Shown: positions 6,987 to 51,754, counted from the stretch's first letter. The stretch: DNA of 64,000 nt from an uncultured Candidatus Rokubacteria bacterium (GCA_963743355.1 CAVUPM010000002.1:2631766-2695765), one strand, 5' to 3'. Translations and numbers: made by a program. Notes: a model not told the origin generated them from the sequence alone.

Positions 6987-7909
6987 CTAGGCCGTCGCCG
7001 CCGCGGCGTTCGCGTGGGCCTCGCGCTCGACGCGCCGGTTGATCTGCGCCGAGACGTCGAAGGTGCCCTCGAGTAGCCCCCAGCCGGCCATCCATTCCCA
7101 CGCCCAGCGCGCCTCGTGCTCCGGGATCGGGCCCGGCTCCTTCAGCTGGATACGACCCAGGTTGAAGTCGTCGGGTGTGAGCCCGGCCAGCGCGGGGTGA
7201 CCGGGGAAATCGCGCAGGTAGTAGGAGACGTACCGTCGCTTGTCCGCATTGATGCGCCGGACGGCGCGCGTGACCGCGCGCAGGAACGCCGCATAGGCCT
7301 CGGCGCTCACGCTCCGATCGGCGACCCACGTCCCGTGAAAGAACGTGGTCGAGACCAGACGGCATCCGATCTTCTCGGCCGCCGTGATCCATGGCTCTTG
7401 CAATACCGTGGCCTCGAACTCGCCCTCGCAGGAGCCCGTCGAGTCGCTCGCCGCCGTGGCTGCCGGCCGCGCGGGTGGTGATGGCCTCGCGCGGCATGGC
7501 GCCCTCGAGCATCAGCAGGCCGGCGTAGGCGGTGCCGTTGCCGTAGTCGAGGGCCACGGGCTTGCCGGCCAGCTCCTGCGGCGTATGGACGCTCGAGGTC
7601 GGCGCCACCACCAGCGCTCCACACACGATCATCGAGCGACGTCCGATCTGCAGCGCGCCCACGGCACTGTCCGCCACCCGGCGGTTATTGCCGCACTCTC
7701 ACCCCTGGAACATGACGGCGTCCCCACGGTCGAGGAGCCGCCCCTGATTCGTGACCGGCTCGAGGAGCGTCCCGTCGGCGGCCGAACGGAGGTCGGCTGG
7801 GCGCCGGCGTCGCGATCCGGAGATCCAGGCCCTCGGCCTCGAAGAGGCCCTCGTCCCGGGCGACGAGCACGTCGAGGCCGTTGAACGCGAGCACCCGCTC
7901 GATCGTCAT
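6987..7909 (-). pseudogene. NMT1/SsuA-like ABC substrate-binding protein gene, disrupted by at least 2 frameshifts and an in-frame stop
   Basis: Three frames have to be joined to reconstruct the protein: MTIERVLAFNGLDVLVARDEGLFEAEGLDLRIATPAP | DLRSAADGTLLEPVTNQGRLLDRGDAVMFQG* | …GALQIGRRSMIVCGALVVAPTSSVHTPQELAGKPVALDYGNGTAYAG… | …EATVLQEPWITAAEKIGCRLVSTTFFHGTWVADRSV…. Confidence 0.6.
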
Positions 7910-9725
7910 CGTCGGCCATGGTCCGGGATCGACTCCCGGGCTTTCCTCGCGGGACTCTAGGCAGTCCGGGCCAAGGGCGCGCCGTCAACACGCTCACCAG
8001 CGCACTCTGCTGCGGCACGCGGCCGAGCAGCAGGCGCGCCATGACGTAGCCTGCGACCACCAGCGCCGTCTGGAGCAAGGCCAGCACGGACGCGGCCTCC
8101 TGCCGGCCGGTCACGGTCCAGAGAAAGATGTCCACCGACAGCATGCGGCTGCCGGGGCCGGCCAGGAGGACGGCCAGATCGAGCACCCGCACGGCGACGA
8201 CGAAGAGGAGGATCCACGCCCCCAGGATGGCCGGCCGCAGGAGCGGCACCCAGATGCGCACGACCGTCCGCAGCCAGGACGCGCCGTGGATCCGCGCCGA
8301 CTCCTCGAGCTCGGCGCCGATCTGCACCATCGTGGCGGTGAAGAACCGCGAGCCCACGGGAAGCCCGCGCGCCACGAACACCAGCACCAGCAGCCAGAGG
8401 GTGCCGTAGATGGGAAGCGCCACGAACGCCCACAGGAAGCCGAGGGCCATGACCAGCCCCGGCACCGCCCACGGCGCCCACGCGATCATGTCGAGGACCT
8501 GGCGTCCCGGCCAGGTCGTCCGCGTGACGACGTAGGAAATGAGCGCGGAGGCAACCATGCCCAGCGTCGCCGCCGCCACGGCCACCGTGAGCGTGTCCTT
8601 GATCGAGGTGAGCACCGCCGTGCGCGACAGCGCGTCGGTCCAGTGCCGGGTGGTAAACATCTCCCACGCCAGAAAGCCGCTGATCTCCATGAAAGAGTTC
8701 AGGAGCAGGACCACGAGCGGCAGCGCGCCGAACACCAGGAAGAAGCCGACGATGCAGCCGAACGGCAGCCAGCGCCACGTCCCGAGGTCGAGGGGCCGGG
8801 CCCGATATCCACGACCGGAGATCGTCGTGTAGGCGCGCCCCTTCAGGAGCTTCCACTGCACCACGATCAGGCTCACGGTGAGCAGCAGCAGCAGGACCGC
8901 GAGCACCATGGCGGGACCGAAGCGGGCGACGTGCCCGCCGTAGGCGAGGTCGTAGATCCGGGTCGTGAACACGAAGATCTTCGCCGGCGTTCCCAGGAGC
9001 TGCGGGATCTCGAACGCCTCCATCGCCACCACGAAGGAGAGGATGCCCGAGGCCAGCAGGGCCGGCAGCAGCAGCGGGAGGTTGACCCGCCAGATGGTGC
9101 GCCAGGCGCTGGCGCCGGCCATGCGCGCCGCTTCCTCGAGCGTCGCGTCCATGGCCTGGAACGCTGGATAGACGAACAGGAACAGCACCGGCGCCGATCG
9201 CACGGCGCCGAGGACGATCAACCCGCCGTACGAGTAGACGTTGACGAACGTCTCCACGCCCGGGACGATCACGCGCAGCCACTGGTTCAGCAGGCCGACG
9301 TTCGGAGCGCCGAGCAGCATCCACGCCAGCACCCACGGCAGCTCCGGCAGGAAGAAGAGGAACACCAGGAGCCCTTCCAGCAACCGCTTGCCCGGCGTGG
9401 TCGTGCGGGCGATGCACCACGCAAAGGCCGTGGCGAGCAGTAGCGCCAGCACCGTTCTCGGCACCGCGATGAGGATGCTCGTGACGAGCACGCGGTACGT
9501 GCTGGCGTCGGCGAGGACGGCGCGCCAGTGCTCCAGGGTGAAGGCGCTCGGCTGCCCCGGGGCCGCGTCCCTCACGCTACCGTAGAGCACCATGGCCAGC
9601 GGGTACACGACCATGAACGCCGTCGCCGCCAGCAAGACCAGCGGGAGGAGCGTCCGCGCGGCAGCCGCCGAGTCGCCCGGCGTGCCTGGCGCCGTCCGCT
9701 CGATCGCGGTGTCGGACGTCGCCAT
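7629..9725 (-). CDS. Fused two-domain ABC transporter permease (FbpB/ThiP-like, iron(III)/thiamine type)
   Basis: Two permease halves, each with an EAA loop (LEEAARMAGASAWRTIWRVNLP and ELEESARIHGASWLRTVVRIWVP). The last roughly 110 aa are low-complexity and run into the downstream pseudogene, so the real end is probably near 7970. Confidence 0.75.
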   Translation of the reverse strand: MATSDTAIERTAPGTPGDSAAAARTLLPLVLLAATAFMVVYPLAMVLYGSVRDAAPGQPSAFTLEHWRAVLADASTYRVLVTSILIAVPRTVLALLLATAFAWCIARTTTPGKRLLEGLLVFLFFLPELPWVLAWMLLGAPNVGLLNQWLRVIVPGVETFVNVYSYGGLIVLGAVRSAPVLFLFVYPAFQAMDATLEEAARMAGASAWRTIWRVNLPLLLPALLASGILSFVVAMEAFEIPQLLGTPAKIFVFTTRIYDLAYGGHVARFGPAMVLAVLLLLLTVSLIVVQWKLLKGRAYTTISGRGYRARPLDLGTWRWLPFGCIVGFFLVFGALPLVVLLLNSFMEISGFLAWEMFTTRHWTDALSRTAVLTSIKDTLTVAVAAATLGMVASALISYVVTRTTWPGRQVLDMIAWAPWAVPGLVMALGFLWAFVALPIYGTLWLLVLVFVARGLPVGSRFFTATMVQIGAELEESARIHGASWLRTVVRIWVPLLRPAILGAWILLFVVAVRVLDLAVLLAGPGSRMLSVDIFLWTVTGRQEAASVLALLQTALVVAGYVMARLLLGRVPQQSALVSVLTARPWPGLPRVPRGKPGSRSRTMADDDDRAGARVQRPRRARRPGRGPLRGRGPGSPDRDAGAQPTSVRPPTGRSSSRSRIRGGSSTVGTPSCSRGESAAITAGWRTVPWARCRSDVAR

Positions 9726-9729
9726 CGGC

Positions 9730-10854
9730 CTATTTCAGGCCAGCCGCCTTCAGGTGGGGCTCGGCCTTGGCCGACCACTCGAAGAACAGCTTGGAGCCGA
9801 ACTCGTAGGTGTCCGGGTTGTTCGGAAACGGCTTCGCCGTCGCGAAGTGGGCCAGCTCGGGGATGGACGGCTTCACGTCTCGGCGGATGAACGGCCCACC
9901 CGGGTCGTCGGCCTGGATCTGCTGCGCTGACTTCGTCAGCAGGTAGTTCAGGAAGACCCGGCCGGCGTTGGGGTGAGGCGCCCCCTGGAGCAGGTTGATA
10001 CCGCCGGTCAGAAGCATCACCCCGTCCTCCGGCACGACCAGACGGAACGGATGCGGCTTGGGCAGTCGCCAGATGTCCGCGGCGCCGACCTGCGTGGGAT
10101 GGATGAAGATGCCGTACTCGCCGCGGGCGATCTGCTTGGGCGCGTCGATCTCCGCCCGGGTCAGGGCCTTCACGTTGGCAATGACCTTGCGCAGGTGCTC
10201 GTCACCGTAGGCGCGCCAGGCATAGGCGGCCCAGCGCGAGCCGGGGGAGGGGCCGATCGGCTCGGAGAGGACGATGAGGCCCTTGTACTTCGGATCCTCC
10301 AGGTCCTTGTAGCTGCGCGGCCCCATCTCGGGCGGGACGAGCTTGTTGTTGACGAGCAGGAAGTACCCACCGGCGGTGAAGTGCAGCGTGTGGCCGTGGC
10401 CCGCCTTCACGTCGACCAGGGGGTCGACGATCCACTGCACGCCCGGCTCCTGGAGCGCGGGGAGGGTGCCGAACGATTGATCCAGCTTGCGGGCCGCGAG
10501 GCGCCGGTTTTCCGGGCTCCCCGAGGACCGGACGTCGATGCTCGGCTTGCCCGCGGCACGCTCGGCGTTCCAGCGCGCCTCGAAGTCGCCGGTGCGGCCG
10601 GGCGACAGCTCGACCCTGATGCCGTACAGCCGCTCGAACTCCCGCGCGTGCCGTTCCGTCGCGGCGCCCGGCGCGCCAAAAAACGACCAGACCACCACGC
10701 CCTCCTTCTTGGCGGCCGCGACCACCTCGTCCCAGGCCTTCGCCGAGGCCGGCGGGCTGCCGCCCGTCTGGGCCATGGTCCGCGGCCCGGCCACGAGCAC
10801 GAACAGCACGAGCCCCACGGCGCCAACCATCAACAGGCTTGTCCTGTATGTCAC
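9730..10854 (-). CDS. ABC transporter periplasmic substrate-binding protein, Fe3+/thiamine type (FbpA/AfuA-like)
   Basis: N-terminal signal peptide (MTYRTSLLMVGAVGLVLFVLVAGPRTMAQ), about 370 aa. Sits between the ATPase and permease genes of the same operon. The start is GTG, preceded by a GGGAGGGG RBS. Confidence 0.8.
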   Translation of the reverse strand: MTYRTSLLMVGAVGLVLFVLVAGPRTMAQTGGSPPASAKAWDEVVAAAKKEGVVVWSFFGAPGAATERHAREFERLYGIRVELSPGRTGDFEARWNAERAAGKPSIDVRSSGSPENRRLAARKLDQSFGTLPALQEPGVQWIVDPLVDVKAGHGHTLHFTAGGYFLLVNNKLVPPEMGPRSYKDLEDPKYKGLIVLSEPIGPSPGSRWAAYAWRAYGDEHLRKVIANVKALTRAEIDAPKQIARGEYGIFIHPTQVGAADIWRLPKPHPFRLVVPEDGVMLLTGGINLLQGAPHPNAGRVFLNYLLTKSAQQIQADDPGGPFIRRDVKPSIPELAHFATAKPFPNNPDTYEFGSKLFFEWSAKAEPHLKAAGLK

Positions 10855-10867
10855 ATCGCCCCTCCCA

Positions 10868-10970
10868 GTGAGACTGGGGGCCCCGACATGGCCCCCAGAC
10901 CCCCAATCGCTCGGGGCGCCCCGGCGGAGCCGTGGCGCCCCTCGACATTCCGCTCAGATTCCTAGACTAG
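10868..10970 (+). repeat. Intergenic palindrome-containing repeat, copy B
   Basis: GTGAGACTGGGGGCCCCGACATGGCCCCCAGA…GGCGCCCCGGCGGAGCCGTGGCGCCCCTCGACATTCCGCTCAGATTCCTAGACTAG. It exactly fills the gap between the ATPase stop and the SBP start, and its terminal CTAG supplies the ATPase stop codon. Confidence 0.7.
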
Positions 10971-12049
10971 CGGGCGCGCCAGGCGCGGATCGCGCTCGCG
11001 GGAATCTCGAGCTGCACGACCGTTCCCTTGCTCAGCGGCTCGATCACCGGGCCCGAGGCGCGGACCCGGGCCGCGCCCACGGCGACGACGTACTCGACGC
11101 GCTCGCCCAGGTAGATCGCCGACAGGACCGTGCCCTGCCAGTGGCCGCCGGTCGAGGGCGGGCACACCCGGACGTCGGCCGACCGGAACGCGAGGACGAT
11201 CTCCTCACCGTCCTGCCAGCCCTGGTCCGGCGCCAGGGCCACCTCGCCGCCGTTGAGGCCGTCCGCGCGCGCCACGCAGACGCCGTCCGGCCGTCGCGTC
11301 ACCCGGGCCCGGACGTGATCGGCCTGGCCGAGGAAGTCCATCACGAACCGCGAGCACGGCTGCTCGTAGATCTGCCGCGGCGTGCCGGCCTGGGCGATCC
11401 GGCCGGCGCTCATCACGAACACCCGGTCGGACAGGATCATGGCCTCGGCCTGGTCGTGGGTGACGAAGACGGTGGTGACCCCGACGCGGGCCTGCAGCTC
11501 CTTCAGCTCGATGCGCATCTCCTCGCGAAGCCGCGCATCGAGATTGGAGAACGGCTCGTCGAGGAGCAGCACCTCGGGGTCCGCCACCAGCGCGCGCCCG
11601 AGCGCCACTCGCTGCTGCTGGCCGCCGGAGAGCAGCGGCGCCGGACGATCGTGGAACCCCTGCAGGCCGAGCGTCACCAGGATCGCCATGACCCGTTCCC
11701 GGATCTCGCCCGGGCGCAGCCGTTTTTCCCGGAGCGGAAAGGCGATGTTCTCGAACACCGTCATGTGCGGCCAGATGGCGTAGGTCTGGAACACCATGCC
11801 CATGCGCCGCTTCTCGGGCGCGAGGAAGACGGCCTGCGTGGTGGATGTCAGCAGCCGCCCGCCCACGGACACCTCACCCGCGTCGGGCCTCTCGAGGCCG
11901 GCGATGAGCCGGAGCGTGGTGGTCTTGCCGCAGCCGCTCGGCCCGAGCAGCGTCGCGAGTGATCCGGCGGGAACCTCGAATCCCACGCCGTTCACGGCCA
12001 GGGCCTTGCCGAACGCCTTCGTCAGACCGCTCACCCGGATGTCCGGCAC
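10967..12049 (-). CDS. ABC transporter ATP-binding protein (FbpC/PotA-like importer ATPase with C-terminal TOBE-like domain)
   Basis: Walker A GPSGCGKTT, signature LSGGQQQRVALGRAL and Walker B LLLDEP. A GTG start at 12049 follows GGAGG with a 7-nt spacer. The listed ORF extends further upstream but that stretch is low-complexity. Confidence 0.85.
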   Translation of the reverse strand: MPDIRVSGLTKAFGKALAVNGVGFEVPAGSLATLLGPSGCGKTTTLRLIAGLERPDAGEVSVGGRLLTSTTQAVFLAPEKRRMGMVFQTYAIWPHMTVFENIAFPLREKRLRPGEIRERVMAILVTLGLQGFHDRPAPLLSGGQQQRVALGRALVADPEVLLLDEPFSNLDARLREEMRIELKELQARVGVTTVFVTHDQAEAMILSDRVFVMSAGRIAQAGTPRQIYEQPCSRFVMDFLGQADHVRARVTRRPDGVCVARADGLNGGEVALAPDQGWQDGEEIVLAFRSADVRVCPPSTGGHWQGTVLSAIYLGERVEYVVAVGAARVRASGPVIEPLSKGTVVQLEIPASAIRAWRAR

Positions 12050-12156
12050 AGCCCGCCTCCTTGCAGTCCTGTCCTGATACCCGAGAACGAGGGCGAAGTC
12101 CAGAGACGGCGGTGCCCGCGGCCTCCGCCGCGCCTGGCTTCGAGTACCATCGGCGC

Positions 12157-13470
12157 GTGGGATGGATCCCGGGCGGGCCGGTCGCGGATGGAGGCGTCCC
12201 CGCGCGCGTGGCCGAGGCGTTCCGGCTGGAGTCCGCGCGCGTGGTCGCCTCCGTGCTGCGGATCGTGCGCGACATCGACGCGGCGGAAGAGATCGTGCAG
12301 GAGGCGTTCGCGCGGGCGCTCGATCGGTGGCCCACCGGCGGCACACCCGATCGCCCGGGCGCGTGGCTCCTGACGACGGCCCGGCGGCGCGCGCTCGATC
12401 ACCTGCGCCGGGCTCGCCGGGCCGGCCGGCACGCCGCCGCGCTCGCGTACGAGGCGGCGCTCGACGCGCTCGACGAGGAGCCCGGCGTGACCGAGCCCGG
12501 AGCGATCGCCGACGACCGGCTCCGCCTGATCTTCACGTGCTGCCATCCGGGCCTGCCGGCCGACAGCCGCGTCGCGCTCACGCTGAGGCTGGTCGGCGGC
12601 CTGTCGACGCCGGAGATCGCGCGGGCCTTCCTCGTGCCCGAGCCCACGATCGCCCAGCGGCTCGTGCGCGCGAAGCGGACGATCCGCGACCGCGCCCTGC
12701 CCTACGAGGTCCCCGAGGGCGCCGAGCTGGCCGCGCGGCTGCCGGCGGTACTCGCGGTGGTCTACCTGATCTTCAACGAGGGCTACGCCGCCCACGCCGG
12801 CGACACTCTCGTGCGTCACGACCTTTGCCACGAGGCCATCCGCCTCGGGCACATGCTCGCCGAGCTGATGTCCGACGAGTCGGAGGTACTGGGACTCCTG
12901 GCGTTGATGGAGCTGCAGGCCTCCCGGGGCGCGACGCGCACCGACGCCGACGGCGAGCTCGTCCTGCTCGCCGATCAGGATCGGGCGCGCTGGGATCGGG
13001 CGGCCATCGCGCGCGGCCTGGCCGGGCTCGACCGCGCGGGGCGGCTGGAGCGAGCCGGACCGTACCAGCTGCAGGCGGCCATCGCCGCCTGCCACGCGCG
13101 CGCGGGCTCCTGGGAAGCGACGGACTGGTCGACGATCGTCGGGTACTACGATGCGCTCGCGGCCGTCACGCCCTCGCCGGTGATCGAGCTGAATCGAGCG
13201 GTGGCGATCGGCCTGGCGTCCGGACCGGCGGCTGGCCTGGCGGCGCTCGACGGCATCGGCGCCGACGCGCTGCACGGCTATCACCTGCTGCCCGCCGCCC
13301 GCGCCGACTTCCTGCGCCGCCTCGGGCGCTGGACGGAGGCGGCCGCGGAGTACCGCCGGGCGCTCGAGCTCGTCGACAATGCCCGTGAGCGATCGTTCCT
13401 CGCAGCCAGGCTCGCCGCCTGCGAAGCCCGGCGTGACGCGGGCGGGGTGGGCGTGAGGTGGGGTCCGTGA
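12157..13470 (+). CDS. ECF-type sigma-70 factor with a long C-terminal TPR-like extension (ECF42-like)
   Basis: Sigma2 and sigma4 regions are present (…IVQEAFARALDRW…, …LVGGLSTPEIARAFLVPEPTIAQRLVRAKRTIR). The YLIFNEGY motif is followed by about 200 aa of helical repeats. A YciI/DGPF gene lies nearby at 6637. The start is assigned to an in-frame GTG. Confidence 0.75.
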   Translation: MGWIPGGPVADGGVPARVAEAFRLESARVVASVLRIVRDIDAAEEIVQEAFARALDRWPTGGTPDRPGAWLLTTARRRALDHLRRARRAGRHAAALAYEAALDALDEEPGVTEPGAIADDRLRLIFTCCHPGLPADSRVALTLRLVGGLSTPEIARAFLVPEPTIAQRLVRAKRTIRDRALPYEVPEGAELAARLPAVLAVVYLIFNEGYAAHAGDTLVRHDLCHEAIRLGHMLAELMSDESEVLGLLALMELQASRGATRTDADGELVLLADQDRARWDRAAIARGLAGLDRAGRLERAGPYQLQAAIAACHARAGSWEATDWSTIVGYYDALAAVTPSPVIELNRAVAIGLASGPAAGLAALDGIGADALHGYHLLPAARADFLRRLGRWTEAAAEYRRALELVDNARERSFLAARLAACEARRDAGGVGVRWGP

Positions 13471-13697: not shown

Positions 13698-14053
13698 CGG
13701 GGCTGGTCGCCGACCACGCGGGTGACGTGGCCCTGGCCGGTGAGGTCCTCGGCGAGGACGACGTCGCCGGGCCCGACGCGGGCCACCGTGCCGTCGCCGA
13801 CCTCGATCTCCGCCAGACCCGAGAGCGAGATCGAGTACTGCCGCCGGGGCGCGCAGTGCCAGTCGAGCACGTAGCCGGGCGGCGAGACGCGAAACGTGAT
13901 GCCGGTCGCTGCCTGCGTGGGGGCCGCCTCGCCGTACGCGCCCTCCACGTCGACGAACGGCTTCATCGCCAGCGGCGTCTCCTCGACGTGCGACTTGCCA
14001 TCCGGACCGCTGTACACCCGCCAGATCTTCGGCACGTCCGTCGGCCGGCTCAC
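13613..14053 (-). CDS. Cupin-domain protein
   Basis: About 147 aa from a GTG that overlaps the upstream TGA (GTGA). Cupin-like core GDGTVARVGPGDVVLAEDLTGQGHVTRVVGDQPRFYAI. The last roughly 25 codons are encoded by repeat copy C. Confidence 0.55.
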   Translation of the reverse strand: MSRPTDVPKIWRVYSGPDGKSHVEETPLAMKPFVDVEGAYGEAAPTQAATGITFRVSPPGYVLDWHCAPRRQYSISLSGLAEIEVGDGTVARVGPGDVVLAEDLTGQGHVTRVVGDQPRFYAIIPLGGPDMAPHAPRAARSVPAEP

Positions 14054-14987
14054 ACGCCCTGGAGCTGGGCGCGACCCCAGGCCACGTCGACCGCGCCCGC
14101 GGGCGTGACGACGGCGCCGGGGACCTCCGGCACGACGGGGTCCTGGCCGGCCACCGTCGTGCGATGCATCACGCGGCGGTACGCGCTCTCGTCCCACGGG
14201 CGCCCGCGGTGCAGCACGCAGCGGTTGTCCCACATCACCAGATCGCCCGGCTGCCAGCGATGCGTGTAGACGAGCCCGGGGCGCGTCGCGCGCTGGAGCA
14301 GATCGCGGAGCAGCGCGCGCGCCTCCTCGGTCGGCATGCCGACGATCTCGCAGGCGTGCGACCCCACGTAGAACGCCTTGCGCCCATGGCGCGGGTTGGC
14401 GCGCACGAGCGCCTGGGGGACGGGCGGAACCTGGGCGGCGTGATCCGGCGGCAGCAGGCCGTCGTCGATCAGGCCGCGCGAATAGACGAAGCTGTGGATG
14501 GCGACCCTGCCCTCGAGGAACCGCTGCGTCGGCTCCGGCAGCGCCTCGTAGGCGACCCGCATGCTCGCGAACTCCGTCTCGCCTCCCCGGGTGGCACCTC
14601 GCGCGCCGACAGCAGCGAGGCGTGGGCCGGCACGCGCTTGAAGGAGCTGTCGCTGTGCCACATCTGGTTGCCGGCGTTGAAGAGGTTGCGCTTGTCGCCG
14701 GCCGGGATCAGCCGGTCCTCGGCGTCCACGTTGGCGAGGTTCGAGACCTCGGGGGCAACCCGGGCCAGCGAGGTGATCGTGCGGAGCGACGTCTCGAGCG
14801 GTCCGAACCGGCGGCTGAAGGCGATCTGCGCCTCGTCGCCGAGCTGCTGCCCGCGGAAGAGCAGCACCGAGTGCTCGTCGAAGGCCTCGACGATCTCGGC
14901 GAACCTCGCGTCGTCCACGCCCCGGACGTCGACGCCCAGGATCTCGACCCCGAAGCACGGATGCAACCGACGCGTCTCGAGCGCCAT
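14050..14987 (-). pseudogene. TauD/TfdA-family alpha-ketoglutarate-dependent dioxygenase with a single frameshift
   Basis: The N-part (MALETRRLHPCFGVEILGVDV…HSDSSFKRVPAHASLLSAREVPP) and C-part (GGETEFASMRVAYEALPE…HRWQPGDLVMWDNRCVLHRG) are in different frames. The break is in a C/G run near 14590. GGGAGG RBS. Confidence 0.75.
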
Positions 14988-15007
14988 GGCAGCGTCCTCC
15001 CTGAGGG

Positions 15008-16610
15008 TTACTCGGCCAGCCAGACGGTGTCGAGCGTCTGGTTGAGGAAGTGGCTCGGCATGATCGTCCAGCCTCGGACCTTGGCGTTGTGGGGAATGAT
15101 CCGGTGCCACTGGAAGCCCATGATGAAGTGCACTTCGTCGTCGTAGAGGCGCTTCTCGAACTGCCGCAGGAGCCGCCGCCGTTCCTCGGGATCCAGCGTC
15201 CGCGACTGCCGGGCGTAGAGGTCGTCCATCACGGTGTCCTTGTGCTTGCCGTAGTTCACCGGCGACGTCGTGAGGAACCAGTGGATGTCCATGTCGGGCT
15301 CGACGATCGAGTTGCAGGGCGCGGTGACGGCCACCTCGAAGTCGCCGCTTCCTCAGCGCCCCGAACCAGCCGGACGTCTCCAGCGACACGTGCTTGACGG
15401 TGATGCCCACCTGCCGCCACTGATCGATGAGCCAGATGCCGAACGGCTCGTAGGGCTGCGGCACCGCGCGGTTCAGCAGCGTGAACGACAGGTTCTCGAC
15501 GCCGGCCTCCTTGAGCAGGCGCCGCGCCTCGGCCCGCGCCGCGTTGATGTCGCGGCCGTAGCCGGCCAGCTTCTCCAGCTCGGCCGGCGGCGTCGCCCAC
15601 GGGGTGCCGGGCACCTGGATGCCGGCCACCTCCTTGATCAGCGCGATCCGGGAGAGCGCCTTGGAGCCCTCGTGCCGGTCGAGCGCCAGCGTGAGCGCGC
15701 GCCGCACACGCTTGTCGTCGAACGGCTTCTTCTGCTCGTTGGGCGTGACCCCGATGGAGCAGTTCCACGGGCTCTCCTGCACCGTGATCTTGCTGCCGAG
15801 CGCGTTCACCAGGCTGTCGCGGTCGGCCGGCGTGAAGCCGCGGAACTGGATCATGGCGCGCTCGCCGCGGACGGCCGCCACCTGGGCGGAGGCGCTGGGG
15901 ATGAAGATGGCGCGAAAGCCGTCGAGGTAGGGCTTGCCCTTGTCCCAGTAGTCGGGGTTCTTCTTGCCGACCCAGTGCGAGCCGCGCACGTACTCGACGA
16001 ACTTGAAGGGGCCGGTGCCCATCACGTTCTTCTCGTACCAGCGCGGGTCCTTGGCCAGGATGTCGGCCTTGTAGATCCAGTTCCAGGGCGACGCCAGCTG
16101 GGCCATGAACGAGGCTTCCGGGCGCTTCAGCCGGAAGACGACCGTGTCCGGCGTCGGCGCCTCCACCGACTCCACGGTGGCGTAGGTGGCCTGGCGGCTC
16201 GAGACGACGCCGGGCGGCGGGAAGATGATGTGGTCGTAGGAGGCCTTGACGTCCTTCGACGTCATCACGCTGCCGTCGTGGAACTTCACGCCCTGGCGGA
16301 CCTTGAACGTGTAGGTCCGGTGGTCCGGCGAGATCGTCCACGACTCGGCGAGGTCGCCCACGAACTTGGTGCCGGTGCGGTCGGTGGGATCGACCCGCAT
16401 CAGCGTGTTGTACTGCGGCGCCCTCGGGTGGAGCATCGCGAACGTTTCCTCGCGGTGCGCGTCGAAGCTCGGGGGCTCGGCGGCGACGACGAAGACCAGC
16501 TCGCCGCCGCTGCGGGGTTTCTCCTGCGCGGCCGCCGGCGCGACCGCGGCGAGGGTGATGAGCAGAGCCAGGCACGTGACGATCGACACTGATCTGACGC
16601 ACAGCCTCAT
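15008..16610 (-). pseudogene. ABC transporter substrate-binding protein, family 5 (DppA/OppA/NikA-like), one frameshift
   Basis: Signal peptide (MRLCVRSVSIVTCLALLITLAAVAPAAAQ), then the SBP_bac_5-like body to …GWFGALRKR, then a frame change near 15337 into …DFEVAVTAPCNSIVEPDMDIHWFLTTSPVNYGKHKD…TVWLAE. Confidence 0.75.
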
Positions 16611-40163: not shown

Positions 40164-40175
40164 CGCGAGCGCTCC

Positions 40176-41984: not shown

Positions 41985-42700
41985 TGGCCGCGGCGCTGCT
42001 CGAGGTGCAGGGCATCGTCAAGCGGTTCGGCGGGTTCACCGCGCTCAACCGGGTGACGCTGCACGTCAAGGCGGGGGAGCGGTTCGGTCTCATCGGCCCC
42101 AACGGCTCGGGCAAGACCACGCTCATCAACTGCGTGTCCGGCGCGCTCCACGCGGACGAGGGCCGGGTCCTCTTCGAGGGCCGGGACATCACGACGCTGG
42201 CGGCTCACCGGCGGACCCGGCTCGGCATCGCGCGGAGCTTTCAGATCCCCAAGCCGTTCACCAGCATGACGGTCCGCGACAACCTCGGCATCCCGCTGGA
42301 GTACGCGGGGCACGGGCGCGCCCACGACGGCGCCGAGGCGGACGAGATCCTCCGGGCCATCGGGCTCGAGGCCAAGGCGCACCTGCGGCCGGCCGGCCTG
42401 ACGCAGATCGAGATGCGCAAGCTGGAGCTGGCCCGCGCGATGGCGGCGCGGCCCAAGCTGCTGATCTCCGACGAGGCCATGGCCGGGCTCTCCAGCGCCG
42501 AGGTGGACGACATCCTGGCCATCCTGTTCCGGCTGAACGCCCAGGGCATCACGATCATCATGATCGAGCACATCATGCGGGCGGTGATGCGCTTCTCCGA
42601 GCGCATCGTGGTGCTCGATGCCGGCGAGCGGATCGCCGAGGGAACGCCGGAAGAGGTCGTGCGGAACCCGGCCGTGGAGAAGGCCTACCTTGGCGAGTAG
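41984..42700 (+). CDS. livG: Branched-chain amino acid ABC transporter ATP-binding protein (LivG-like)
   Basis: [44 protein letters not shown] 1-nt overlap with the livM stop. Confidence 0.8.
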
Positions 42701-43421
42701 GCTCGTGGTCCGCAACGTGGACGCCGGCTACGGCGCCGTGCAGGTGCTGCACGGCGTCTCCCTGGAGGTCCGCGAGGGCGAGACGGTCGCCCTCCTCGGC
42801 ACCAACGGCAACGGCAAGAGCACCCTGATCAAGTGCATCATGGGCATCGTGCCGCCGGAGGCCGGCGAGATCTTCCTGGAAACGGACGACGCCCGCATCG
42901 ATCTCACGCGCAAGTCCACGGAGGAGATCGTCGGCCTCGGCATCGCCCTGGTGCCGGAGGGGCGGCGCCTCTTTCCCAGGCTCACCGTGGAGGAGAACCT
43001 GCTCCTCGGCGCCTATCGGACGGAGGCCCGGGCCGGCATCGCCCGCAACCTGGCCTTCTCCTTCGAGGCATTCCCGGTGCTGCGCGAGCGGCGGCGTCAG
43101 CTGGCCGGCAGCATGAGCGGCGGCGAGCAGCAGATGCTGGCGGTGGCCCGTGCGCTCATGTCGTCGCCGCGCATCCTGCTCGTCGACGAGCCGTCGGTGG
43201 GGCTGGCGCCCATCCTCGTGAGCCGCGTGATCGCCAAGATCAAGGAGCTGAAGGAGCAGTACCAGCTCACCGTCCTCATGGCCGAGCAGAACTTCAACCA
43301 GGCGACCAAGATCGCCGACCGCGGCTACATCATCGTCCACGGCAAGATCGAGTTCGAGGGCCGCAACACCCGCGAGCTGCGCGAGAACGAGCTGGTCAAG
43401 AAGTACTACCTCGGCGTGTAG
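42690..43421 (+). CDS. livF: Branched-chain amino acid ABC transporter ATP-binding protein (LivF-like)
   Basis: GTNGNGKSTLIK, MSGGEQQMLAVARALMSSPRILLVDEPSVGLAP. The start is a TTG or GTG overlapping the livG end. Confidence 0.75.
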   Translation: MASRLVVRNVDAGYGAVQVLHGVSLEVREGETVALLGTNGNGKSTLIKCIMGIVPPEAGEIFLETDDARIDLTRKSTEEIVGLGIALVPEGRRLFPRLTVEENLLLGAYRTEARAGIARNLAFSFEAFPVLRERRRQLAGSMSGGEQQMLAVARALMSSPRILLVDEPSVGLAPILVSRVIAKIKELKEQYQLTVLMAEQNFNQATKIADRGYIIVHGKIEFEGRNTRELRENELVKKYYLGV

Positions 43422-43478: not shown

Positions 43479-44137
43479 ATGAGCCCCACCGAATATCAGC
43501 AGCTCATCGAGTTCCTCGGGCAGAAGTTCGCCGAGGTGGACCAGCGCTTTGACGGCGTGGACCAGCGCCTGGGCAGGATGGACCAGCGCTTGGACAGGAT
43601 GGACCAGCGCTCGATGGCGTGGACCAGCGCCTGGACAGGATGGACCAGCGCTTCGATGGCGTGGACCAGCGCCTGGACAGGATGGACCAGCGCTTCGATG
43701 GCGTGGACCAGCGCCTGGACAGGATGGACCAGCGCTTCGATGGCGTGGACCAGCGCCTGGACAGGATGGACCAGCGCTTCGATGGCGTGGACCAGCGCCT
43801 GGACGGGGTGGACCAGCGATTCAACGAACTGGACCGGCGCTTCCTCGAAATAGACCGGCGCTTCACAGGTCTCGATGGCCGCTTCACCGGTCTGCACGAT
43901 GAACTTGCCGAGCTGCGGCGCGAGATGCTCGGCCACTTCGACGAGATCTATCGCCGCCTGGACCGCCTCGAGCAAGAGTACCAGGCGATCACCCAGGCCC
44001 TGCGGCGGATCGAGGCGGGACTGGCCGGCGAGCACCGGCGGCGAGAGATCATCGAGCGGGACATCGCCGAGCTGAAGCGGTACGTGGCGTCCCTCCAGGC
44101 GCGGATCGACGAGATCGAGCAGCGCCTCGGCAACTAG
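43479..44137 (+). CDS. Heptad-repeat coiled-coil protein made of tandem VDQRFDG/MDQRLDR repeats; contains a 1-nt deletion
   Basis: MSPTEYQQLIEFLGQKFAE(VDQRFDGVDQRLDRMDQR…)x about 10, then …EIDRRFTGLDGRFTGLHDELAELRREMLGHFDEIYRRLDRLEQEYQAITQALRRIE…IDEIEQRLGN. The frame breaks at about 43600, where one repeat reads CAGCGCTCGATGG instead of CAGCGCTTCGATGG. Confidence 0.6.
43527..43830 (+). repeat. Perfect 42-bp (2 x 21-bp) tandem DNA repeats inside the coiled-coil gene
   Basis: GACCAGCGCTTCGATGGCGTGGACCAGCGCCTGGACAGGATG is repeated about 5 times exactly, with degenerate copies at both ends. Confidence 0.85.
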
Positions 44138-44179: not shown

Positions 44180-45824
44180 GTGGACCTGACCGCTCCCGGG
44201 CGCCTCCGCCTGGGCTCCACGACCGCCCCCGCCAGCGACGAGCCGCTCACCGCGACCCGGAAGTGGACGATCACCGGCGCCGTGATGCTCGTCACCGTCA
44301 TGCAGGTGCTCGACGTCACCGTGACGAACGTCGCGCTGCCGCACATCCAGGGCTCGCTGTCGGCGGCCGTCGACGAGGTCTCGTGGGTGCTCACCTCCTA
44401 TCTCGCCGCCAACGCCATCATCCTGCCCGCGACGGGGTGGCTCGCCAGCGTCCTCGGGCGCAAGCGGCTGTTCCTCACGTGCACGGTCGTGTTCACGCTG
44501 GCCTCCATGCTCTGCGGGCTCGCCCCCAACATCGACGACGCTCCTGCTCGCGCGCATGCTGCAGGGCCTCGGCGGGGGACCGCTCATGCCCCTGTCCCAG
44601 GCGATCATGTGGGAGATCTTCCCGCTCCGGCAGCGGGGCATGGCCATGGCGGCGTGGGGCGTGGGCATCATGATGGCGCCGATCTTCGGCCCCACCCTCG
44701 GCGGCTGGATCTCGGACAACTGGTCGTGGCGCTGGATCTTCTACATCAACCTGCCCATCGGCGTCGTCGGCCTTCTCGTCGCCAGCGCCGTGCTCTTCGA
44801 TCCGCCGGTATCTCAAGAGGCCGGGGCGCATCGACGCGATCGGCCTCGTGCTCATGGCCGTCGGCTTCCTCTCGCTCCAGCTCTTCCTCGACCAGGGAGA
44901 GCGCAACGAGTGGTTCGACTCGTCGTTCGTCCTCGTCCTCGCCGTCCTGGCGGCGCTGGCGCTCGTCGGCTTCGTGGTGCGCGAGCTGACCGCCGACGAG
45001 CCGATCCTCGATCTCAGCGTGTACGCGCGACCGCAACTTCGCGGCGGGCAGCGTCATCATGCTCACCGTCATGATCGGCTTCTTCTCGAGCATGGTGCTC
45101 CTCGCCCTCTTCACCCAGAAGGTGCTGGGGTACGACGCGTGGACGTCGGGACTCGTGCTGGCGCCGGGTGGTGTCGGCAACCTGCTGTCGCTCGTCGTCG
45201 CGGGCCGGCTCATCACGCGCGTGGACCAGCGCTGGCTCCTCGCCCTTGGCTGCGCGCTCAACGCGTACGCGACGTACGAGATGTCCGACGGTCACGCTGG
45301 GCGTCGACTACTGGGCGCTGGCGTGGCCGCGGCTGGTCCAGGGCGTCGGCATCGGCTTCATCTTCGTCCCCCTCAACACGGTGGCGCTGGCGACGATCTC
45401 CCGGGAGCGGATGGGCAACGCGACCGTCCTGCTGAACGTCGTCAGGAACCTCGGCGGCGCCATCGGCGTCGCGCTCATGACCACGCTGCTGGCCCGGCGC
45501 ACCCAGGCAGCACCAGACCACGCTGGTCGGCCACGTCGACATCTGGGATGCGCGAGACGGCGGAGCGGCTCCAGGGCGTGGGCGACGCACTTCACGGCCC
45601 AGGGCGCCGACAGCTTCACGGCGGAACGGCGCGCCGTGGGCATGCTCTACCAGGAGGTGACGCGGCAGGCGCAGCTCCTGGCCTTCGCCGACGACTTCTG
45701 GCTGCTCTTCCTGCTGTTCTGCGGCTCGCTCGTTCTCCTGCCGATGCTGAGCCGGGTGCGCATCGTGCCCTCGACCCGCCGGGAGGCGGACGAGGTCGCG
45801 CCGCCTGTCGTGCACGCCGAGTGA
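44180..45824 (+). pseudogene. MFS transporter (DHA2/EmrB-QacA-like, 14-TM type) with at least 6 frameshifts
   Basis: Conserved MFS blocks are present but spread over three frames: …VMLVTVMQVLDVTVTNVALPHIQGSL…, …LARMLQGLGGGPLMPLSQAIMWEIFPLRQRGMAMAAWG…, …AGSVIMLTVMIGFFSSMVLLALFTQKVLGYDAW…, …LAWPRLVQGVGIGFIFVPLNTVALATIS…. Confidence 0.7.
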
Positions 45825-45885
45825 CGCGGGGCGGGCATCCGGGCGGCAGGTTGCGCAACCGGCAGGCGCGTTCTATCCTCGGTCG

Positions 45886-47439
45886 ATGATCGTTCCGCTC
45901 ACGCTGGTGGACTTTCTCGAGCGCGCCGAGGTGCGTGTACGGCGACCGCGTGGCCGTGGTCGACGAGCCGAGCCCGCCCGGCGGCGGCCTCGGCCGCTTC
46001 ACCTACGCGCAGTTCGGCGCGATGGCGCGCAGCCTGGCCGCCGCCCTCGACGACCTCGGCGTCGGCCAGGACGAGCGCGTGGCCATCGTCTCGCCCAACG
46101 CCGCGCGCTTCCTGGTGAGCCTGTTCGGCGTCAGCGCCTACGGCCGGATCCTGGTGCCGGTGAACTTCCGCCTCAACGCCGAGGAGATCCGCTACATCCT
46201 CGAGCACTCCGGGCTCCTCGGTGCTGCTGGTCGATCCCGAGCTCGACGAGCCGCTGCGCGACATCCCGGTCAAGCACCGCATCGTGCTCGGCACCGCCAG
46301 CGACCCGCAGCTCTTCCTGCGCCAGGGCGCGCACGCCGCAGCTGCGGCGTGGCCGACGAGAACGCCACCGCGTCGATCAACTACACGTCCGGCACCACCG
46401 CGCGCCCCAAGGGCGTGCAGCTCACCCACCGCAACTGCTGGCTCAACGCGGTGACCTTCGGCTGGCACCTGGCGCTGACCGATCGCGACGTGTATCTGCA
46501 CACGCTGCCGACCTTCCACTGCAACGGCTGGGGCATGCCGTACGCGGTGACCGGCATGGGCGTGCGCCAGGTCATCATCCGCAAGATCGACGGCGAGGAG
46601 ATCCTGCGCGCGATCGAGGCCGAGGGCGTGACCCTCCTCAACTGCGCGCCCGCCGTGGTCGCCGCCGTCGCTCGACGCCGCCGCCGCGCGGCGCGGCCAA
46701 GGGCGTGGCGGTGCCGGGCCGCGGCCGCGTGCGGGTGGTGGTCGCCGGCGCGCCGCCGCCGTCCAGGACGATCGAGCGGGTCGAGACGGAGCTCGGCTGG
46801 GAGTTCATCCAGATCTACGGGCTCACCGAGACCGCGCCGCTGCTGACGATCAACCGCGCGCCGGCGGAGTGGGACGGGCTCGACGCCGCGGAGCGGGCCA
46901 GGCGCCTGTCGCGCGCGGGCGTGCCGGCGGTCGGCGTGCAGCATGCGCGTGGACGCCGAGGGCGAGGTGCTGGCGCGCTCCAACCACGTCTTCGAGGGGT
47001 ACTGGAACCAGCCGGAGGAGACGGCCAAGGCCATCGACGACGGCTGGTTCCACACGGGCGACGGCGGCTACCGCGAGGACGCCTACGTCGTCATCAGCGA
47101 CCGCAAGAAGGACGTGATCATCACCGGCGGCGAGAACGTCTCGTCGATCGAGGTGGAGGACTGCCTGTTCCAGCACCCGGCGGTGGCCGAGGTCGCGGTG
47201 ATCGGCGTGCCCGACGAGAAGTGGGGCGAGACGATCAAGGCGCTCGTCGTGCTCCGCCCCGGCGCCAGCCGCCACCGAGCGCGATCTCATCGAGCACTGC
47301 CGCGGCCGCATGGCGCACTACAAGTGCCCGACCTCGGTCGAGCTGCGCGACGCGCTGACGCGCACGGCGACCGGGCAAGCTGCAGAAGTTCAAGCTGCGC
47401 GAGCCGTACTGGGCCGGCCGTACGCGTCGGGTTAATTAG
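45886..47439 (+). pseudogene. AMP-dependent acyl-CoA synthetase/ligase (FadD-like) with multiple frameshifts
   Basis: …NYTSGTTARPKGVQLTHRNCW…, …LHTLPTFHCNGWGMPYAV…, …IYGLTETAPLL…, …[36 protein letters not shown]…[21 protein letters not shown]… are all present but in shifting frames. The TAG stop at 47437 abuts repeat copy F. Confidence 0.7.
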
Positions 47440-47575
47440 ATGGGGGGCCCCGATATGGCCCCCCATACCCCCCGGCGCTCGTCGCGCCCCGGCGAAGCCG
47501 CGGCGCTCCTCGATCCCCGGCGCTCGTCGCGCCCCGGCGGAGCCGCGGCGCTCCTCGATCGCGGGCGCGCCCAAT
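47431..47575 (+). repeat. Intergenic palindrome-containing repeat, copy F, with an internal 45-bp tandem duplication
   Basis: TTAATTAGATGGGGGGCCCCGATATGGCCCCCCATACC, then CCCGGCGCTCGTCGCGCCCCGGCG(A/G)AGCCGCGGCGCTCCTCGATC twice (47471-47515 and 47516-47560). Confidence 0.7.
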
Positions 47576-49456
47576 TCCTGCCCACCTCCCGGGCCGACCT
47601 CGACGCGCGCGGCTGGGACGCAGCTCGACATCGTCATCGTCAGCGGCGACGCCTACGTCGATCACCCGGCCTTCGGGCCGGTGCTGATCGCGCGCTTCCT
47701 CGAGGGGCGCGGCTTCAAGGTCGGCATCATCGCCCAGCCCGACTGGCGCAGCGCCGAGCCGTTCCGCGCGCTCGGGCAAGCCGCGCCTGTTCTTCGGCAT
47801 CTCCGCCGGCAACCTCGACTCGATGCTCAACCGGCTCACCGCGCAGAAGAAGAACCGCTCGGAGGACCAGTACACCCCCGGCGGCCGCACCGGCTGCCGC
47901 CCCAATCGCGCGACCATCGTCTACGCCCAGCGCTGCCGCGAGGCCTTCCCCGACGTGCCGATCGTGCTCGGCGGCATCGAGGCCTCGCTGCGGCGGATCG
48001 CCCACTACGACTACTGGACCGACACGGTGCGCCGCTCGATCCTGCTCGACGCCAAGGCCGACCTGCTCGTCTTCGGCATGGGCGAGCGGCCGGTCTGGGA
48101 GGTCGCCGACCGCCTGAACCGCGGCGAGCGCATCGCGCGAGATCCGCGACGTGCGCGGCACCGCGTTCCTGATCAACGACGCCGAGATGAAGCGCCACGA
48201 GGCCGATCCGGCGCGCATGGTCGCCGACCGCAAGACCGTGGTGCTGCCGTCGTACGAGGAGGTCGTCGCCGACAAGCGCGCCTTCGCGCTGATGTCGCGC
48301 GCGCTTCCAGCTCGAGACCAACCCGGGCAACGCGCGCCCGCTGCCCCAGCGCCACGGCGAGCGCGGCGTCTACTTCAACCCGCCGGCGCTCCCGCTCGAG
48401 GACGGCGCGGGCAGCGGCGGCGCGTCCGTCTCGATGGACGAGCTCTACGACCTGCCGTTCACGCGCGCGCCGCACCCGACGTACACGGAGCCGATCCCCG
48501 CCTTCGAGACGGTGAAGCACTCGCTCGTGCTCATGCGCGGCTGCTTCGGCGGCTGCACGTTCTGCTCGATCACCGAGCACGAGGGGCGCGTCATCCAGAA
48601 CCGCTCGGCCGAGAGCGTGCTGCGCGAGGTCCGCGCGCTCCGCCGCCAGGGCGACTTCCGCGGCACGATCACCGACCTCGGCGGCCCGACCGCCAACATG
48701 TACAAGATGCGCTGCAAGAGCCCGGAGATCGAGTCGACGTGCCGGCGCCTCTCGTGCGTGCACCCGGGCATCTGCGAGAACCTCAAGACCGATCACGGGC
48801 CGCTGATCGACCTCATGCAGCAGGTGCGCAAGGAAGACGGGCGTCAAGCACGTCTTCATCGCCTCGCGGCGTGCGCTACGACCTCGCCGAGCGCTCGCCC
48901 GAGTTCGTCGACGAGCTGGCCCGGCACCACGTCGGCGGCCAGCTCTCGGTCGCGCCCGAGCACGTGAGCCCGCGCGTGCTCGAGAAGATGAAGAAGCCCG
49001 GCATCGAGAGCTACGAGCGCTTCCAGACGATGTTCGCGTGCGCCAGCGAGGACGCCGGGCAAGGAGCAGTACCTCATCCCCTACTTCATCAGCGGCCACC
49101 CCGGCTCGACGCTGGAGGACATGGTCGAGCTGGCGCTGTAGCTCAAGAAGAACGGGCTGCGGCCGCGCCAGGTGCAGGACTTCATCCCGACGCCGATGTC
49201 GATGGCCACCTGCATGTACTACACGGGCATCGACCCGCTCACCATGCAGCCGGTCTACACCGCCACCGGGCTGCGCGAGAAGAAGCTGCAGAAGGCGCTG
49301 CTGCTCTACTGGAACCCCGAGCAGTGGCCGCTGGCGCGCGAGGCGCTGCGCGAGGCCGGCCGCGCCGATCTGATCGGCAACGGCCCCGACGCGCTGGTGC
49401 CCGCCGAGGGCCCAGCTATGGCAGCAGGTCCGCGACGGCAACCTCGACCGCGCTGA
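47455..49456 (+). pseudogene. ygiQ: YgiQ-family (UPF0313) radical SAM protein, with about 6 frameshifts and an in-frame TAG
   Basis: …[15 protein letters not shown] | [19 protein letters not shown]…[10 protein letters not shown]… | …[23 protein letters not shown]… | …MRGCFGGCTFCSITEHEGR…DLGGPTANMY…CRRLSC… | …HHVGGQLSVAPEHV… | …[31 protein letters not shown]…. TAG replaces the conserved Trp codon at about 49139. The N-terminal codons lie inside repeat F. Confidence 0.7.
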
Positions 49457-50059: not shown

Positions 50060-50554
50060 TCAGATCAGGAACGACAGGTTGGGCAGCGGCTCGGCCGCGT
50101 TCACGAGCACGACCTTCTTGCCGGCTCATCCGCAGCTCGCCGTCCACGCGGCGCAGGCGGTGCGTGGTGCGGCCCACCCACCAGTGCATCTCGTGCTTCG
50201 ACTGCACGGACAGCTCGGCCAGGATGAAGTTCGACTCGACGACCAGCTCGTCGCCGTCCGCCGCCGGTCACCTCGACGTTGGAGATGAGCCGGCGCATGA
50301 GCGAGGCGGGCTCCTGGCTGTGGCGATTCCCCGTCTGCAGCAGCTTGATGCGGGTGTCGATGCGGGCGCGGTTGTCGTAGATGTGCGAGAGGTGCGTGTC
50401 GGGCGTGGCGCGTCGGGTCGGTCGTCGCCGGCACCCAGTACACGCCGTCGTCCGTCCACAGCGCCAGCCACTCGGCGTAGCGCGCCTCGTCGGCCAGGCG
50501 GGCTTCGCGGTAGAGGAACGCGACTGCGGCTCGGTGGTCGGCGTCGGAGACCAT
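50060..50554 (-). pseudogene. Aromatic ring-hydroxylating dioxygenase beta subunit (SnoaL-like fold) with at least 3 frameshifts
   Basis: MVSDADHRAAVAFLYREARLADEARYAEWLALWTDDGVYWVPA | …DTHLSHIYDNRARIDTRIKLLQTGNRHSQEPASLMRRLISNVEVT | …ELSVQSKHEMHWWVGRTTHRLRRVDGELRM | …GKKVVLVNAAEPLPNLSFLI*. Confidence 0.65.
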
Positions 50555-50571
50555 GCGGGCGAGGGCGCGCG

Positions 50572-51754
50572 CTACGCGTCCGTCATCACTGTCCGGTAGT
50601 GGTGCCAGAGGGCCCGGTTCGTCGTCTCGTCGGTGACGTGGGAGACGACGCGGCCCTCGGCGTCGACGTACTCACGGTTCAGGCCGCGGCCCAGCAGCAG
50701 CCACTCCACGGTGCGGGCGTGCAGGCCGGCCTGGTTGCGGCTGGCCACGATCAGGTCCTCCGGCATCAGGAATGAGGCGGGCCCCATGCCGGCCTCGGCC
50801 ATCCGCAGCAGGCGGCCGTTGAACTGCGGGACGCCGGTGAGGAACATCGGCGTGTGCCAGTGGACGCACTCCTCCACGCTGACCGGCTCGACGATGGCGA
50901 TGTTCGTCTCGCCGAGAAAGAGATTCGGGAAGATCAACGCGTGGGCCGGACCCTCCATGATGCGCCGGCGCGTGATCTCCGGTCCGTCCCGGCGCTCCAG
51001 CGCGGCGACGTAGTCGGCGACCCCGGCGCCCGAGGCGTTGCCGAGCCACTCGAACGGGGCCTGGTAGCCGGGCGACCAGTCGATCTCGATGTGGCCGTGG
51101 CCCCAGTCGCGGATCACGGCCTTGATCGACTTCTCGTCGCCCACCACGCGCTGGTACTGGGTGCGGATCGACTTGAACAGGGCGCTGTGCACGAAGCCGA
51201 GGTGGTAGCCGTCGCTGTCGTTCTCGGGCAGCATCTTCCAGTTCGCGGTGCAGCGATGCTTCACCCAGCCCGCCGTCAGCTCGACCTCGCCGGTCGGGCG
51301 AGAGGTCGCACGAGCGGTCGATCAGCCTCGTGGCGGCGCCGAGGTGCTCGACGAGCGTCAGCCCCGTCGGACTCAGGCTCGCGAAGACGAAGCCCCGGTA
51401 GCTCGACACGCGCGCCGCCCGCGCCAGCCCGTGCGCGCTCTTGTCGAATGACGCGTAGCCGCCGGGATAGGGCACGCCGAGCAGCTCGCCGGACAGGTCG
51501 TAGGTCCAGCCGTGGTACGGACAGGCGAACGTACGGACGCTCCCGCGCTCGGCCGGGCACAGCATCGTGCCCCGGTGCATGCACCGGTTGACGAGCACGG
51601 CGATGCCGCCGTCCTTGCCGCGCACCATGATGACGGGCTCACGACCGATGGATCGGGTGACGTAGTCACCCGGGCGCGGGATCTCGCTGTCGTTCCCGCA
51701 GAATCGGTTGCCCCGCCTAGGATACCTGCTAAAAGTGTCACTTGCTTCCTCCAC
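50572..51754 (-). pseudogene. Rieske non-haem iron ring-hydroxylating dioxygenase alpha subunit; frameshifted and lacking its native N-terminus
   Basis: Rieske motif CMHRG…CPYHGW, then the catalytic domain in a second frame (…NWKMLPENDSDGYHLGFVHSALF…). Only about 55 aa precede the Rieske cysteines where about 80-100 are expected, and the first roughly 14 codons lie in AT-richer DNA immediately after a TAA. Confidence 0.7.

Follow-up and report, generated by a model that had tools for sequence, protein, structure and literature searches.

Long-read consensus indel error splits conserved open reading frames (ORFs) by indels of one or two nucleotides; it is measured by IDEEL and corrected by proovframe (10.1101/2021.08.23.457338). 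Soil assemblies made from Oxford Nanopore (ONT) reads are the worst affected and exceed HiFi assemblies in the number of proteins truncated by frameshifts (PMC13087279), and large sets of soil metagenome-assembled genomes derive from Flye assemblies of Nanopore reads alone, followed by a single round of Medaka (PMC12313526). In its classic form, this error consists of homopolymer deletions spread evenly along the sequence. A related class is formed by the homopolymer errors of 454, Ion Torrent and early Nanopore sequencing, in which single-base length changes arise in runs. A biological counterpart is found in Mycobacterium leprae, whose pseudogenes reportedly stem from reductive evolution and include many adjacent genes with several frameshifts each, lying beside intact essential clusters. 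The window analysed here is a stretch of 64,000 nucleotides (CAVUPM010000002.1:2631766-2695765) in which about 22 genes, located within 7-59 kb, are split across reading frames. Judged by comparison with related contigs, these frameshifts are very probably (probability about 0.88) consensus errors in the deposited sequence and do not reflect changes in the organism's own genome. They serve as a warning about data quality and are not a biological feature.

The G+C content of the window is about 70% over bases 1-52,000 and 61-64% over the last 12 kb. At such a G+C content, long ORFs occur in every frame; the original prediction, made from the sequence alone, was correct in calling the naive ORF track misleading. 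Reading frames were followed with a seven-state Viterbi path over a codon model whose training set was ten genes that are clearly intact; this yielded 127 frame fragments. All of them were scanned against Pfam, with neighbouring fragments packed into different query proteins. Frame path and per-fragment Pfam matches together define the split genes, in which single domains are divided between frames at consecutive positions of the Pfam model; PhyH, VOC and both dioxygenase subunits are among the domains divided in this way. By the same path, short coding segments occur at 1.48 per kb in the window and at 1.57 per kb in L164, a second long contig described below, versus 0.19-0.37 per kb in the short-read contigs L081, L082 and L161-L163. 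At least 25 broken genes, each needing one to six frame changes, had been proposed: the splitting itself is borne out, while the count comes down to about 22-23 documentable genes, and the upper limit of the range of frame changes is too low, since some genes need up to 9-10. For the gene described as an SsuA-like substrate-binding protein (SBP), the frame path does contain two changes, and Pfam gives its identity weak support (NMT1, E = 0.018, model 6-31).

Exact look-up of six window proteins placed all of them on a single public contig of 3,283,468 bp (NCBI, ENA). Relatives were first sought in metagenomes with the LivK-like protein, which matched 80 soil contigs; two of them, L081 and L082, show 89-90% nucleotide identity and are syntenic with the window at 36.8-51.7 kb. 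Searches that used the SBP_bac_5 and methyltransferase proteins as queries, combined with contig look-ups, added L161, L162, L163, L166 and L167, which cover 1.4-7 and 12-36 kb. The comparison set consists of these seven short-read soil-metagenome contigs, syntenic with the window at about 87-91% nucleotide identity. Among the species representatives of genome_contigs queried with fba, the nearest were 76-77% identical, too distant for base-level comparison. A viral-contig collection queried with the capsid protein returned no relatives of the prophage, whose shifts were oriented by tblastn with proteins of Streptomyces phage Chymera.

Every gene that is broken in the window and was compared is a single full-length ORF in the contigs of the relatives, and base-level alignment shows that the broken genes differ from them almost solely by single extra bases. 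A first gene set contains 47 uncompensated single-base and 4 two-base insertions, together with about 8 single-base deletions, 3 of them robust; a second set adds 9 single-base insertions, 1 two-base insertion and 3 deletions. Summed over 14 broken genes, 54 nucleotides are extra and 8 are missing, a ratio of about 7 to 1. When the extra bases are deleted and the missing ones padded, a stop-free full-length ORF with 81-94% amino-acid identity is restored in 13 of the 14 genes, and the lesion left after this repair is a TGG>TAG change at 49139-49141, present in ygiQ only. Insertion sequence (IS) elements and large deletions are absent from 13 of the 14 genes. Spacers are affected in the same way, with 12 single-base insertions versus 3 deletions; four of these insertions fall within 20317-20365. 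None of the window lesions is present in any of the relatives, which are about 10% diverged and do not represent the same strain; lesions fixed in independent assemblies, named at the outset as the mark of true pseudogenes, are accordingly not seen in this comparison. At the sites that had been singled out for inspection, alignment located 1-nt deletions at 14588 and 20922, an extra T at 15350, an extra C at 19438 and at 21139, a shift inside a tandem repeat near 43600, a +1 insertion at 47773 and the nonsense codon in ygiQ. Extra bases were also placed at 44536, 46334 and 48136.

Of the 47 single-base insertions, 36 (77%) introduce a base that differs from both of its neighbours, and the run length at the inserted base is 1 in 36 cases, 2 in 3, 3 in 8 and at least 4 in none, where the null expectation places 61% of bases in runs of length 1. 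In 14 of the 47, a G is flanked by Cs or a C by Gs (null, 11%). Since most of the insertions match neither neighbour and none lies in a run of four or more, they are neither homopolymer errors nor slippage mutations. The earlier attribution to homopolymer sequencing error was therefore right about the kind of lesion and wrong about its mechanism, as only 11 of the 47 insertions extend a run, to a length of 2-3. Errors of the 454, Ion Torrent and early Nanopore type share with the window the single-base length changes, and a few sites do fall in short G/C runs (14588, 37931, 49057), but none of the 47 insertions lies in a run of four or more. Long-read consensus error is matched in several respects: one- and two-nucleotide indels split conserved ORFs, the lesions are absent from short-read relatives, and the affected sequence is a multi-megabase metagenome contig; in contrast to the classic form, the window shows mostly insertions outside homopolymers, gathered in blocks between error-free stretches of 4-6 kb. 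No methylation-like motif was shared among the insertion sites, where only loose preferences were noted, for a C on either side of an inserted G and for a CG directly after the insertion (33% of insertions). A side-by-side retention of both alleles of a third-position strain polymorphism was also considered and rejected, as 23 of 30 insertions touch codon position 3 where 20 would do so by chance, and seven fall between positions 1 and 2.

The lesions are spread unevenly far beyond chance, as had been claimed. The 52 events over 30 relative-covered genes give G = 103, a value reached in 0 of 200,000 simulations, and 18 of these genes carry no event where 6.6 would be expected. Five clusters are without lesions (hyf-like, fbp-like ABC, TetR-YbhGFSR-like, liv and fba/HpaB); all of these, like the phage capsid and protease genes, had been called intact, and each of their genes is read in one frame. 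The contrast had been described as a skew toward dispensable singleton genes, with multi-gene operons spared. A concentration in particular blocks of sequence is the better reading. Operon-like sets are broken too, namely those of HMG-CoA lyase and CoA-transferase (HMGL-CoAT), dioxygenase alpha-beta, CMD-SDR-LLM (LLM, luciferase-like monooxygenase) and acs-ygiQ. Within the block at 32807..36094, the methyltransferase and cupin genes are clean.

A second case of the same kind is provided by L164, a 2.4-Mb contig of a relative (ENA, NCBI). Compared with L163, it carries about 45 single-base insertions and about 5 deletions. Its lesions (15317-21593) hit core genes, namely nadC, trpC, trpF, trpB, trpA, accD and beyond, as far as folC, and become dense from a point some 960 nt into nadC; gene calls are fragmented there, with IGPS reduced to 56 aa and PALP divided into 65 and 163 aa. 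TauD and SBP_bac_5, broken in the window, are clean in L164, and conversely the HpaB and LLM genes of L164 carry lesions at sites where the window is identical to L163. This pattern indicates that what the lesion type depends on is the type of contig and the sequence stretch, and not gene function. The name of the contig, contig_32758, resembles what is presumably Flye-style naming by a long-read assembler, a reading of the name only.

Drift prolonged enough to leave as many as ten indels in a gene would be expected to spread substitutions evenly over codon positions, and this pattern is not seen. In acs, which carries nine insertions, the window-specific substitutions number 9, 9 and 38 at the first, second and third codon positions, and the window branch is not the longest. 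The ratio of nonsynonymous to synonymous substitution rates (Ka/Ks) in pairs with the window is 0.15-0.17 for acs, 0.21 for CoAT, 0.25 for MFS, 0.22-0.23 for SDR2, 0.11-0.16 for VOC, 0.14-0.16 for PhyH and 0.12-0.15 for the amidohydrolase. These values (0.11-0.25) equal those between the relatives themselves and those of clean genes, despite 2-12 indel nucleotides in each of the broken genes. Relaxed selection on the lesion-bearing genes is not observed, with ygiQ as a partial exception.

The process that would produce such a sequence can be outlined from these comparisons. In the bad stretches (20.9-22.9, 25.9-26.4, 32.8-38.9 and 43.5-51.4 kb), the consensus contains about 4 presumably spurious indel nucleotides per kb; roughly 7 in 8 are added bases, most often a G or C that matches neither neighbour. 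Other stretches of 4-6 kb contain none, and genes are whole there and all broken in the bad stretches. The contig would be a long-read assembly of the Nanopore/Flye type, polished with its own reads only, and the bad stretches would correspond to low effective read depth or to mixed strains, tending to coincide with strain-variable, that is accessory, segments. Error-rich segments of this kind would explain why it is the accessory genes that look broken. The variable gene order near the liv operon, together with the many short-read contigs that stop immediately upstream of livK, fits the idea of strain-variable segments at low depth.

Several points weigh against consensus error as the explanation. 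The errors are deduced from comparison with relatives and are not read off sequencing reads; the contigs used for it come from other strains, some 10% diverged; and the long-read platform and the cause of the block pattern are likewise deduced, not established. The clean liv block ends within about 35-180 nt of the limits of the operon, as selection would also predict. The ABC_sub_bind gene is truncated N-terminally and has lost about 95 aa internally, more than 1-nt errors can explain; it is either a genuine remnant or else an assembly deletion. Finally, ygiQ alone has a raised Ka/Ks, 0.16-0.20 versus 0.07 between relatives, in addition to its nonsense codon. A few lesions may therefore be real, namely the ABC_sub_bind remnant and possibly the ygiQ TAG, and genuine pseudogenes would number at most one or two against the background of artefact.

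Closest to consensus error stands the proposal that the lesions are mostly artefact but that ygiQ, and perhaps one or two other genes, is also a true pseudogene in the strain. This is unlikely, though not lightly set aside, as the TGG>TAG change at 49140 is specific to the window and the window-specific changes in ygiQ are in excess at codon positions 1 and 2 (42, versus 37 at position 3), in line with the raised Ka/Ks. That Ka/Ks nevertheless remains far below 1, the density of insertions is the same as in acs, which is itself not relaxed, and substitution errors in a poor consensus would look identical.

A second alternative accepts the errors but ascribes the block pattern to patchy polishing, whether by short reads, hybrid gap-filling or reference guidance, and not to depth or strain mixture. 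The sharp alternation of error-free and error-rich stretches, several kb each, would be natural under such a procedure, and the clean stretches are widely conserved, the liv operon being found in at least 80 soil contigs. However, acs, ygiQ and TauD are equally well represented in databases, L164, with its presumably Flye-style contig name, has the same pattern, and the pipeline is itself only surmised, which makes patchy polishing a rather doubtful explanation of the blocks.

Genuine, recent reductive decay, in which dispensable catabolic genes would have been frameshifted and operons kept by selection, was also part of the original prediction and is now improbable. It draws on the very strong gene-by-gene contrast, on the coincidence of the clean liv block with the operon limits, on the nonsense codon and raised Ka/Ks of ygiQ and on the truncated ABC_sub_bind remnant. 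Against it stand the unchanged Ka/Ks of acs, CoAT, MFS, SDR2, VOC, PhyH and the amidohydrolase, the restoration of 13 of 14 ORFs, the finding of such lesions also in spacers and in the trp, accD and nadC genes of L164, the lack of IS elements and large deletions in 13 of 14 genes, and the breakage of operon-like sets. The excess of extra over missing nucleotides, with insertions mostly untemplated, is moreover the opposite of the deletion bias that bacterial pseudogenes are said to display. The comparison with M. leprae points the same way: the window shares with it the adjacent, multiply frameshifted genes beside intact clusters, but shows no relaxed selection, deletion bias or IS elements and almost no nonsense codons, and its lesions are absent from relatives and occur also in spacers.

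It is highly improbable that the extra bases are real, as products of a very recent burst of untemplated single-base insertion in strain-variable segments of soil Methylomirabilota-like genomes; such a burst, for example by error-prone end-joining or a faulty polymerase, would have been too recent for substitutions to accumulate and would have occurred independently in the window and in L164. Programmed recoding, by ribosomal frameshifting or transcriptional slippage that restores the proteins, has a negligible chance: the one point in its favour is that each gene can be recovered by frame changes, and it is refuted by the relatives, in which these proteins are encoded by uninterrupted ORFs. 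Up to 10 shifts per gene would be required, at sites with no common slippery motif.

If the lesions are consensus errors, gene calls, pseudogene counts, metabolic reconstructions and accounts of genome reduction based on this contig would be wrong in patches, and the same would hold for soil contigs of the L164 type. Quality checks based on protein length miss the damage in the amidohydrolase, SDR1 and DUF222/HNH genes. In the amidohydrolase and SDR1 (20916-21700, +), compensating indel pairs garble about 30-70 aa. A diagnostic that needs no reads is available: an excess of insertions, their position outside homopolymers and an unchanged Ka/Ks relative to short-read relatives together separate consensus error from decay. 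The features on which this reading rests are collected in Table 1.

Table 1. Broken and intact features of the window, with lesion positions and the frame, domain or alignment evidence for each (positions in nucleotides of the window; Pfam ranges are model positions).
Feature	Position	Strand	Lesions or state	Further evidence
Putative SsuA/NMT1-like binding protein	6988..7910	-	Two frame changes, near 7426 and 7676-7799	Frame path only
TauD	14052..15008	-	1-nt deletion at ~14588 (CCTCCC-CGGG) vs L161, L162, L163	Pfam 2-122 in frame -2, 121-267 in frame -0; repair gives a 313-aa stop-free ORF
SBP_bac_5 (DppA-like)	15009..16610	-	One extra T at 15350	Homologues 530-534 aa
Luciferase-like monooxygenase 1	19258..20289	-	Extra C at 19438	
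SDR1	within 20916..22850	+	1-nt deletion at 20922, +C at 21139	Pfam 2-70 and 60-192
LLM2	within 20916..22850	+	Extra bases at 21789, 21922, 22432, 22522, 22688, 22815	Pfam 17-51, 60-217 and more
DUF222/HNH gene	22992..24200	+	Frame +2 to +0 (+1 shift) near 23790; naive ORF continues in wrong frame	Pfam DUF222 4-260; HNH motif readable in frame +0
Amidohydro_2 gene	25608..26601	-	Deletion 25970, +A 26077, deletion 26272, +G 26382	Two compensating indel pairs, ORF appears whole; Pfam 72-168 and 152-289
PhyH	within 32807..36094		+1 at 33051 and 33353	
VOC	within 32807..36094		+1 at 34905 and 35117	
SDR2	within 32807..36094		+2 at 35427, +1 at 35520, -1 at 35541, +1 at 35590, +1 at 35825	Pfam in four pieces: 1-36, 34-92, 90-156, 158-190
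ABC_sub_bind remnant (genuine, or else assembly deletion)	36104..36601	-	Truncated	Pfam 72-138, 234-261, 260-293 only
HMG-CoA lyase	within 36632..38817	-	+1 at 36958, 36989, 37164	Pfam 2-129 and 189-259
CoA-transferase III	within 36632..38817	-	+2 at 37764; +1 at 37931, 37972, 38003, 38160, 38170, 38242, 38420, 38540; -1 at 38457	CoA_transf_3 domain in six pieces
Coiled-coil repeat protein ('ATG17_like')	43479..44137	+	Frame +2 to +1 inside 42-nt tandem array	Array 43536-43822, 6.9 copies, 93% matches; far shorter in L081, where the gene is a single ORF
MFS	within 44223..49456	+	7 extra bases	MFS_1 pieces 2-83, 83-187 and more
Acyl-CoA synthetase (acs)	within 44223..49456	+	9 extra bases	AMP-binding in six pieces, including 8-93, 159-276, 286-352; C-terminal domain in two
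YgiQ	within 44223..49456	+	7 extra bases; TAG codon 49139-49141	Radical_SAM_N 15-68, 61-187, 235-301, plus DUF3362
Ring-hydroxylating dioxygenase beta	within 50061..51693	-	Indels near 50120, 50265, 50410	
Ring-hydroxylating dioxygenase alpha (Rieske)	within 50061..51693	-	+C at 51295	
Prophage head module	55768..61340	+	TerL frame 1 to 2; portal 3 to 1 to 2; +1 steps only	Splits by Pfam plus tblastn with phage Chymera proteins; protease and capsid each in one frame
hyf-like / Mrp-NiFe hydrogenase-like cluster	1..6422	+	Clean	Proton_antipo_M x2, NADHdh, Complex1_30kDa+49kDa; one frame per gene (Viterbi), full-length Pfam matches; no uncompensated non-3n indel vs L161 (1435-6982)
fbp-like ABC operon (permease, SBP, ATPase; -) and sigma70/DUF6596 gene (+)	7987..13449	-/+	Clean	Full-length domains; sigma70/DUF6596 gene vs L161: compensated indels only
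fba (+) and HpaB-like gene (-)	16740..19256	+/-	Clean	No indels vs L161 or L163
TetR-HlyD-ABC(2x ATPase)-ABC2-ABC2 operon (TetR-YbhGFSR-like)	26793..32718	+	Clean	Indels vs L166, L167 all 3n or compensated
livKHMGF operon	38889..43421	+	Clean	No non-3n indel within genes vs L081, L082, L167

Two candidate lesions were discarded. The Uma2 gene (49416-50207) looked truncated by its Pfam match (model 68-147), but it is a 263-aa ORF collinear with L081 and without indels, and a frame blip in the phage protease at 59334-59363 is noise, both Pfam pieces sharing one frame.

The hyf-like cluster encodes a fused Complex1_30kDa/49kDa/NiFe large-subunit protein together with two Mrp/Nuo-type antiporter subunits, and is syntenic and conserved in L161 and L162. 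L163, L166 and L167 lack the inserted stretch at 22869-24279 that holds the DUF222/HNH endonuclease gene, and the gene is therefore likely to be mobile. Its HNH motif reads LLRRRHHRAVH; HNH motifs usually have Cys at the place of the first Arg.

The source organism is probably a soil diderm of the Rokubacteria type and not an actinobacterium. This assignment is suggested by database proteins with 79-90% identity to the window, which are named Methylomirabilota, and by the LptD, OMP beta-barrel and YhdP/DUF748 genes carried by syntenic relatives (L163 20312-21602; L164 1-4069). Among the species representatives, fba is closest (76-77%) to Actinomycetota.

Gene content near the liv operon varies among close relatives, as is apparent when 36.1-45.8 kb is set beside L081, L082 and L167. 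The MFS gene is missing from L081 and the repeat-protein gene from L082, and L167 is without the HMGL/CoAT block, SDR2 there abutting the repeat protein and livK. The spacer between acs and ygiQ contains a 45-nt tandem duplication (47480-47524) relative to L081. Further downstream, 52000-64000 comprises an HK97-type prophage head module with TerS, TerL, portal, S78 protease, capsid and tail tube, and its portal has its closest match in Streptomyces phage Chymera (51% amino-acid identity).

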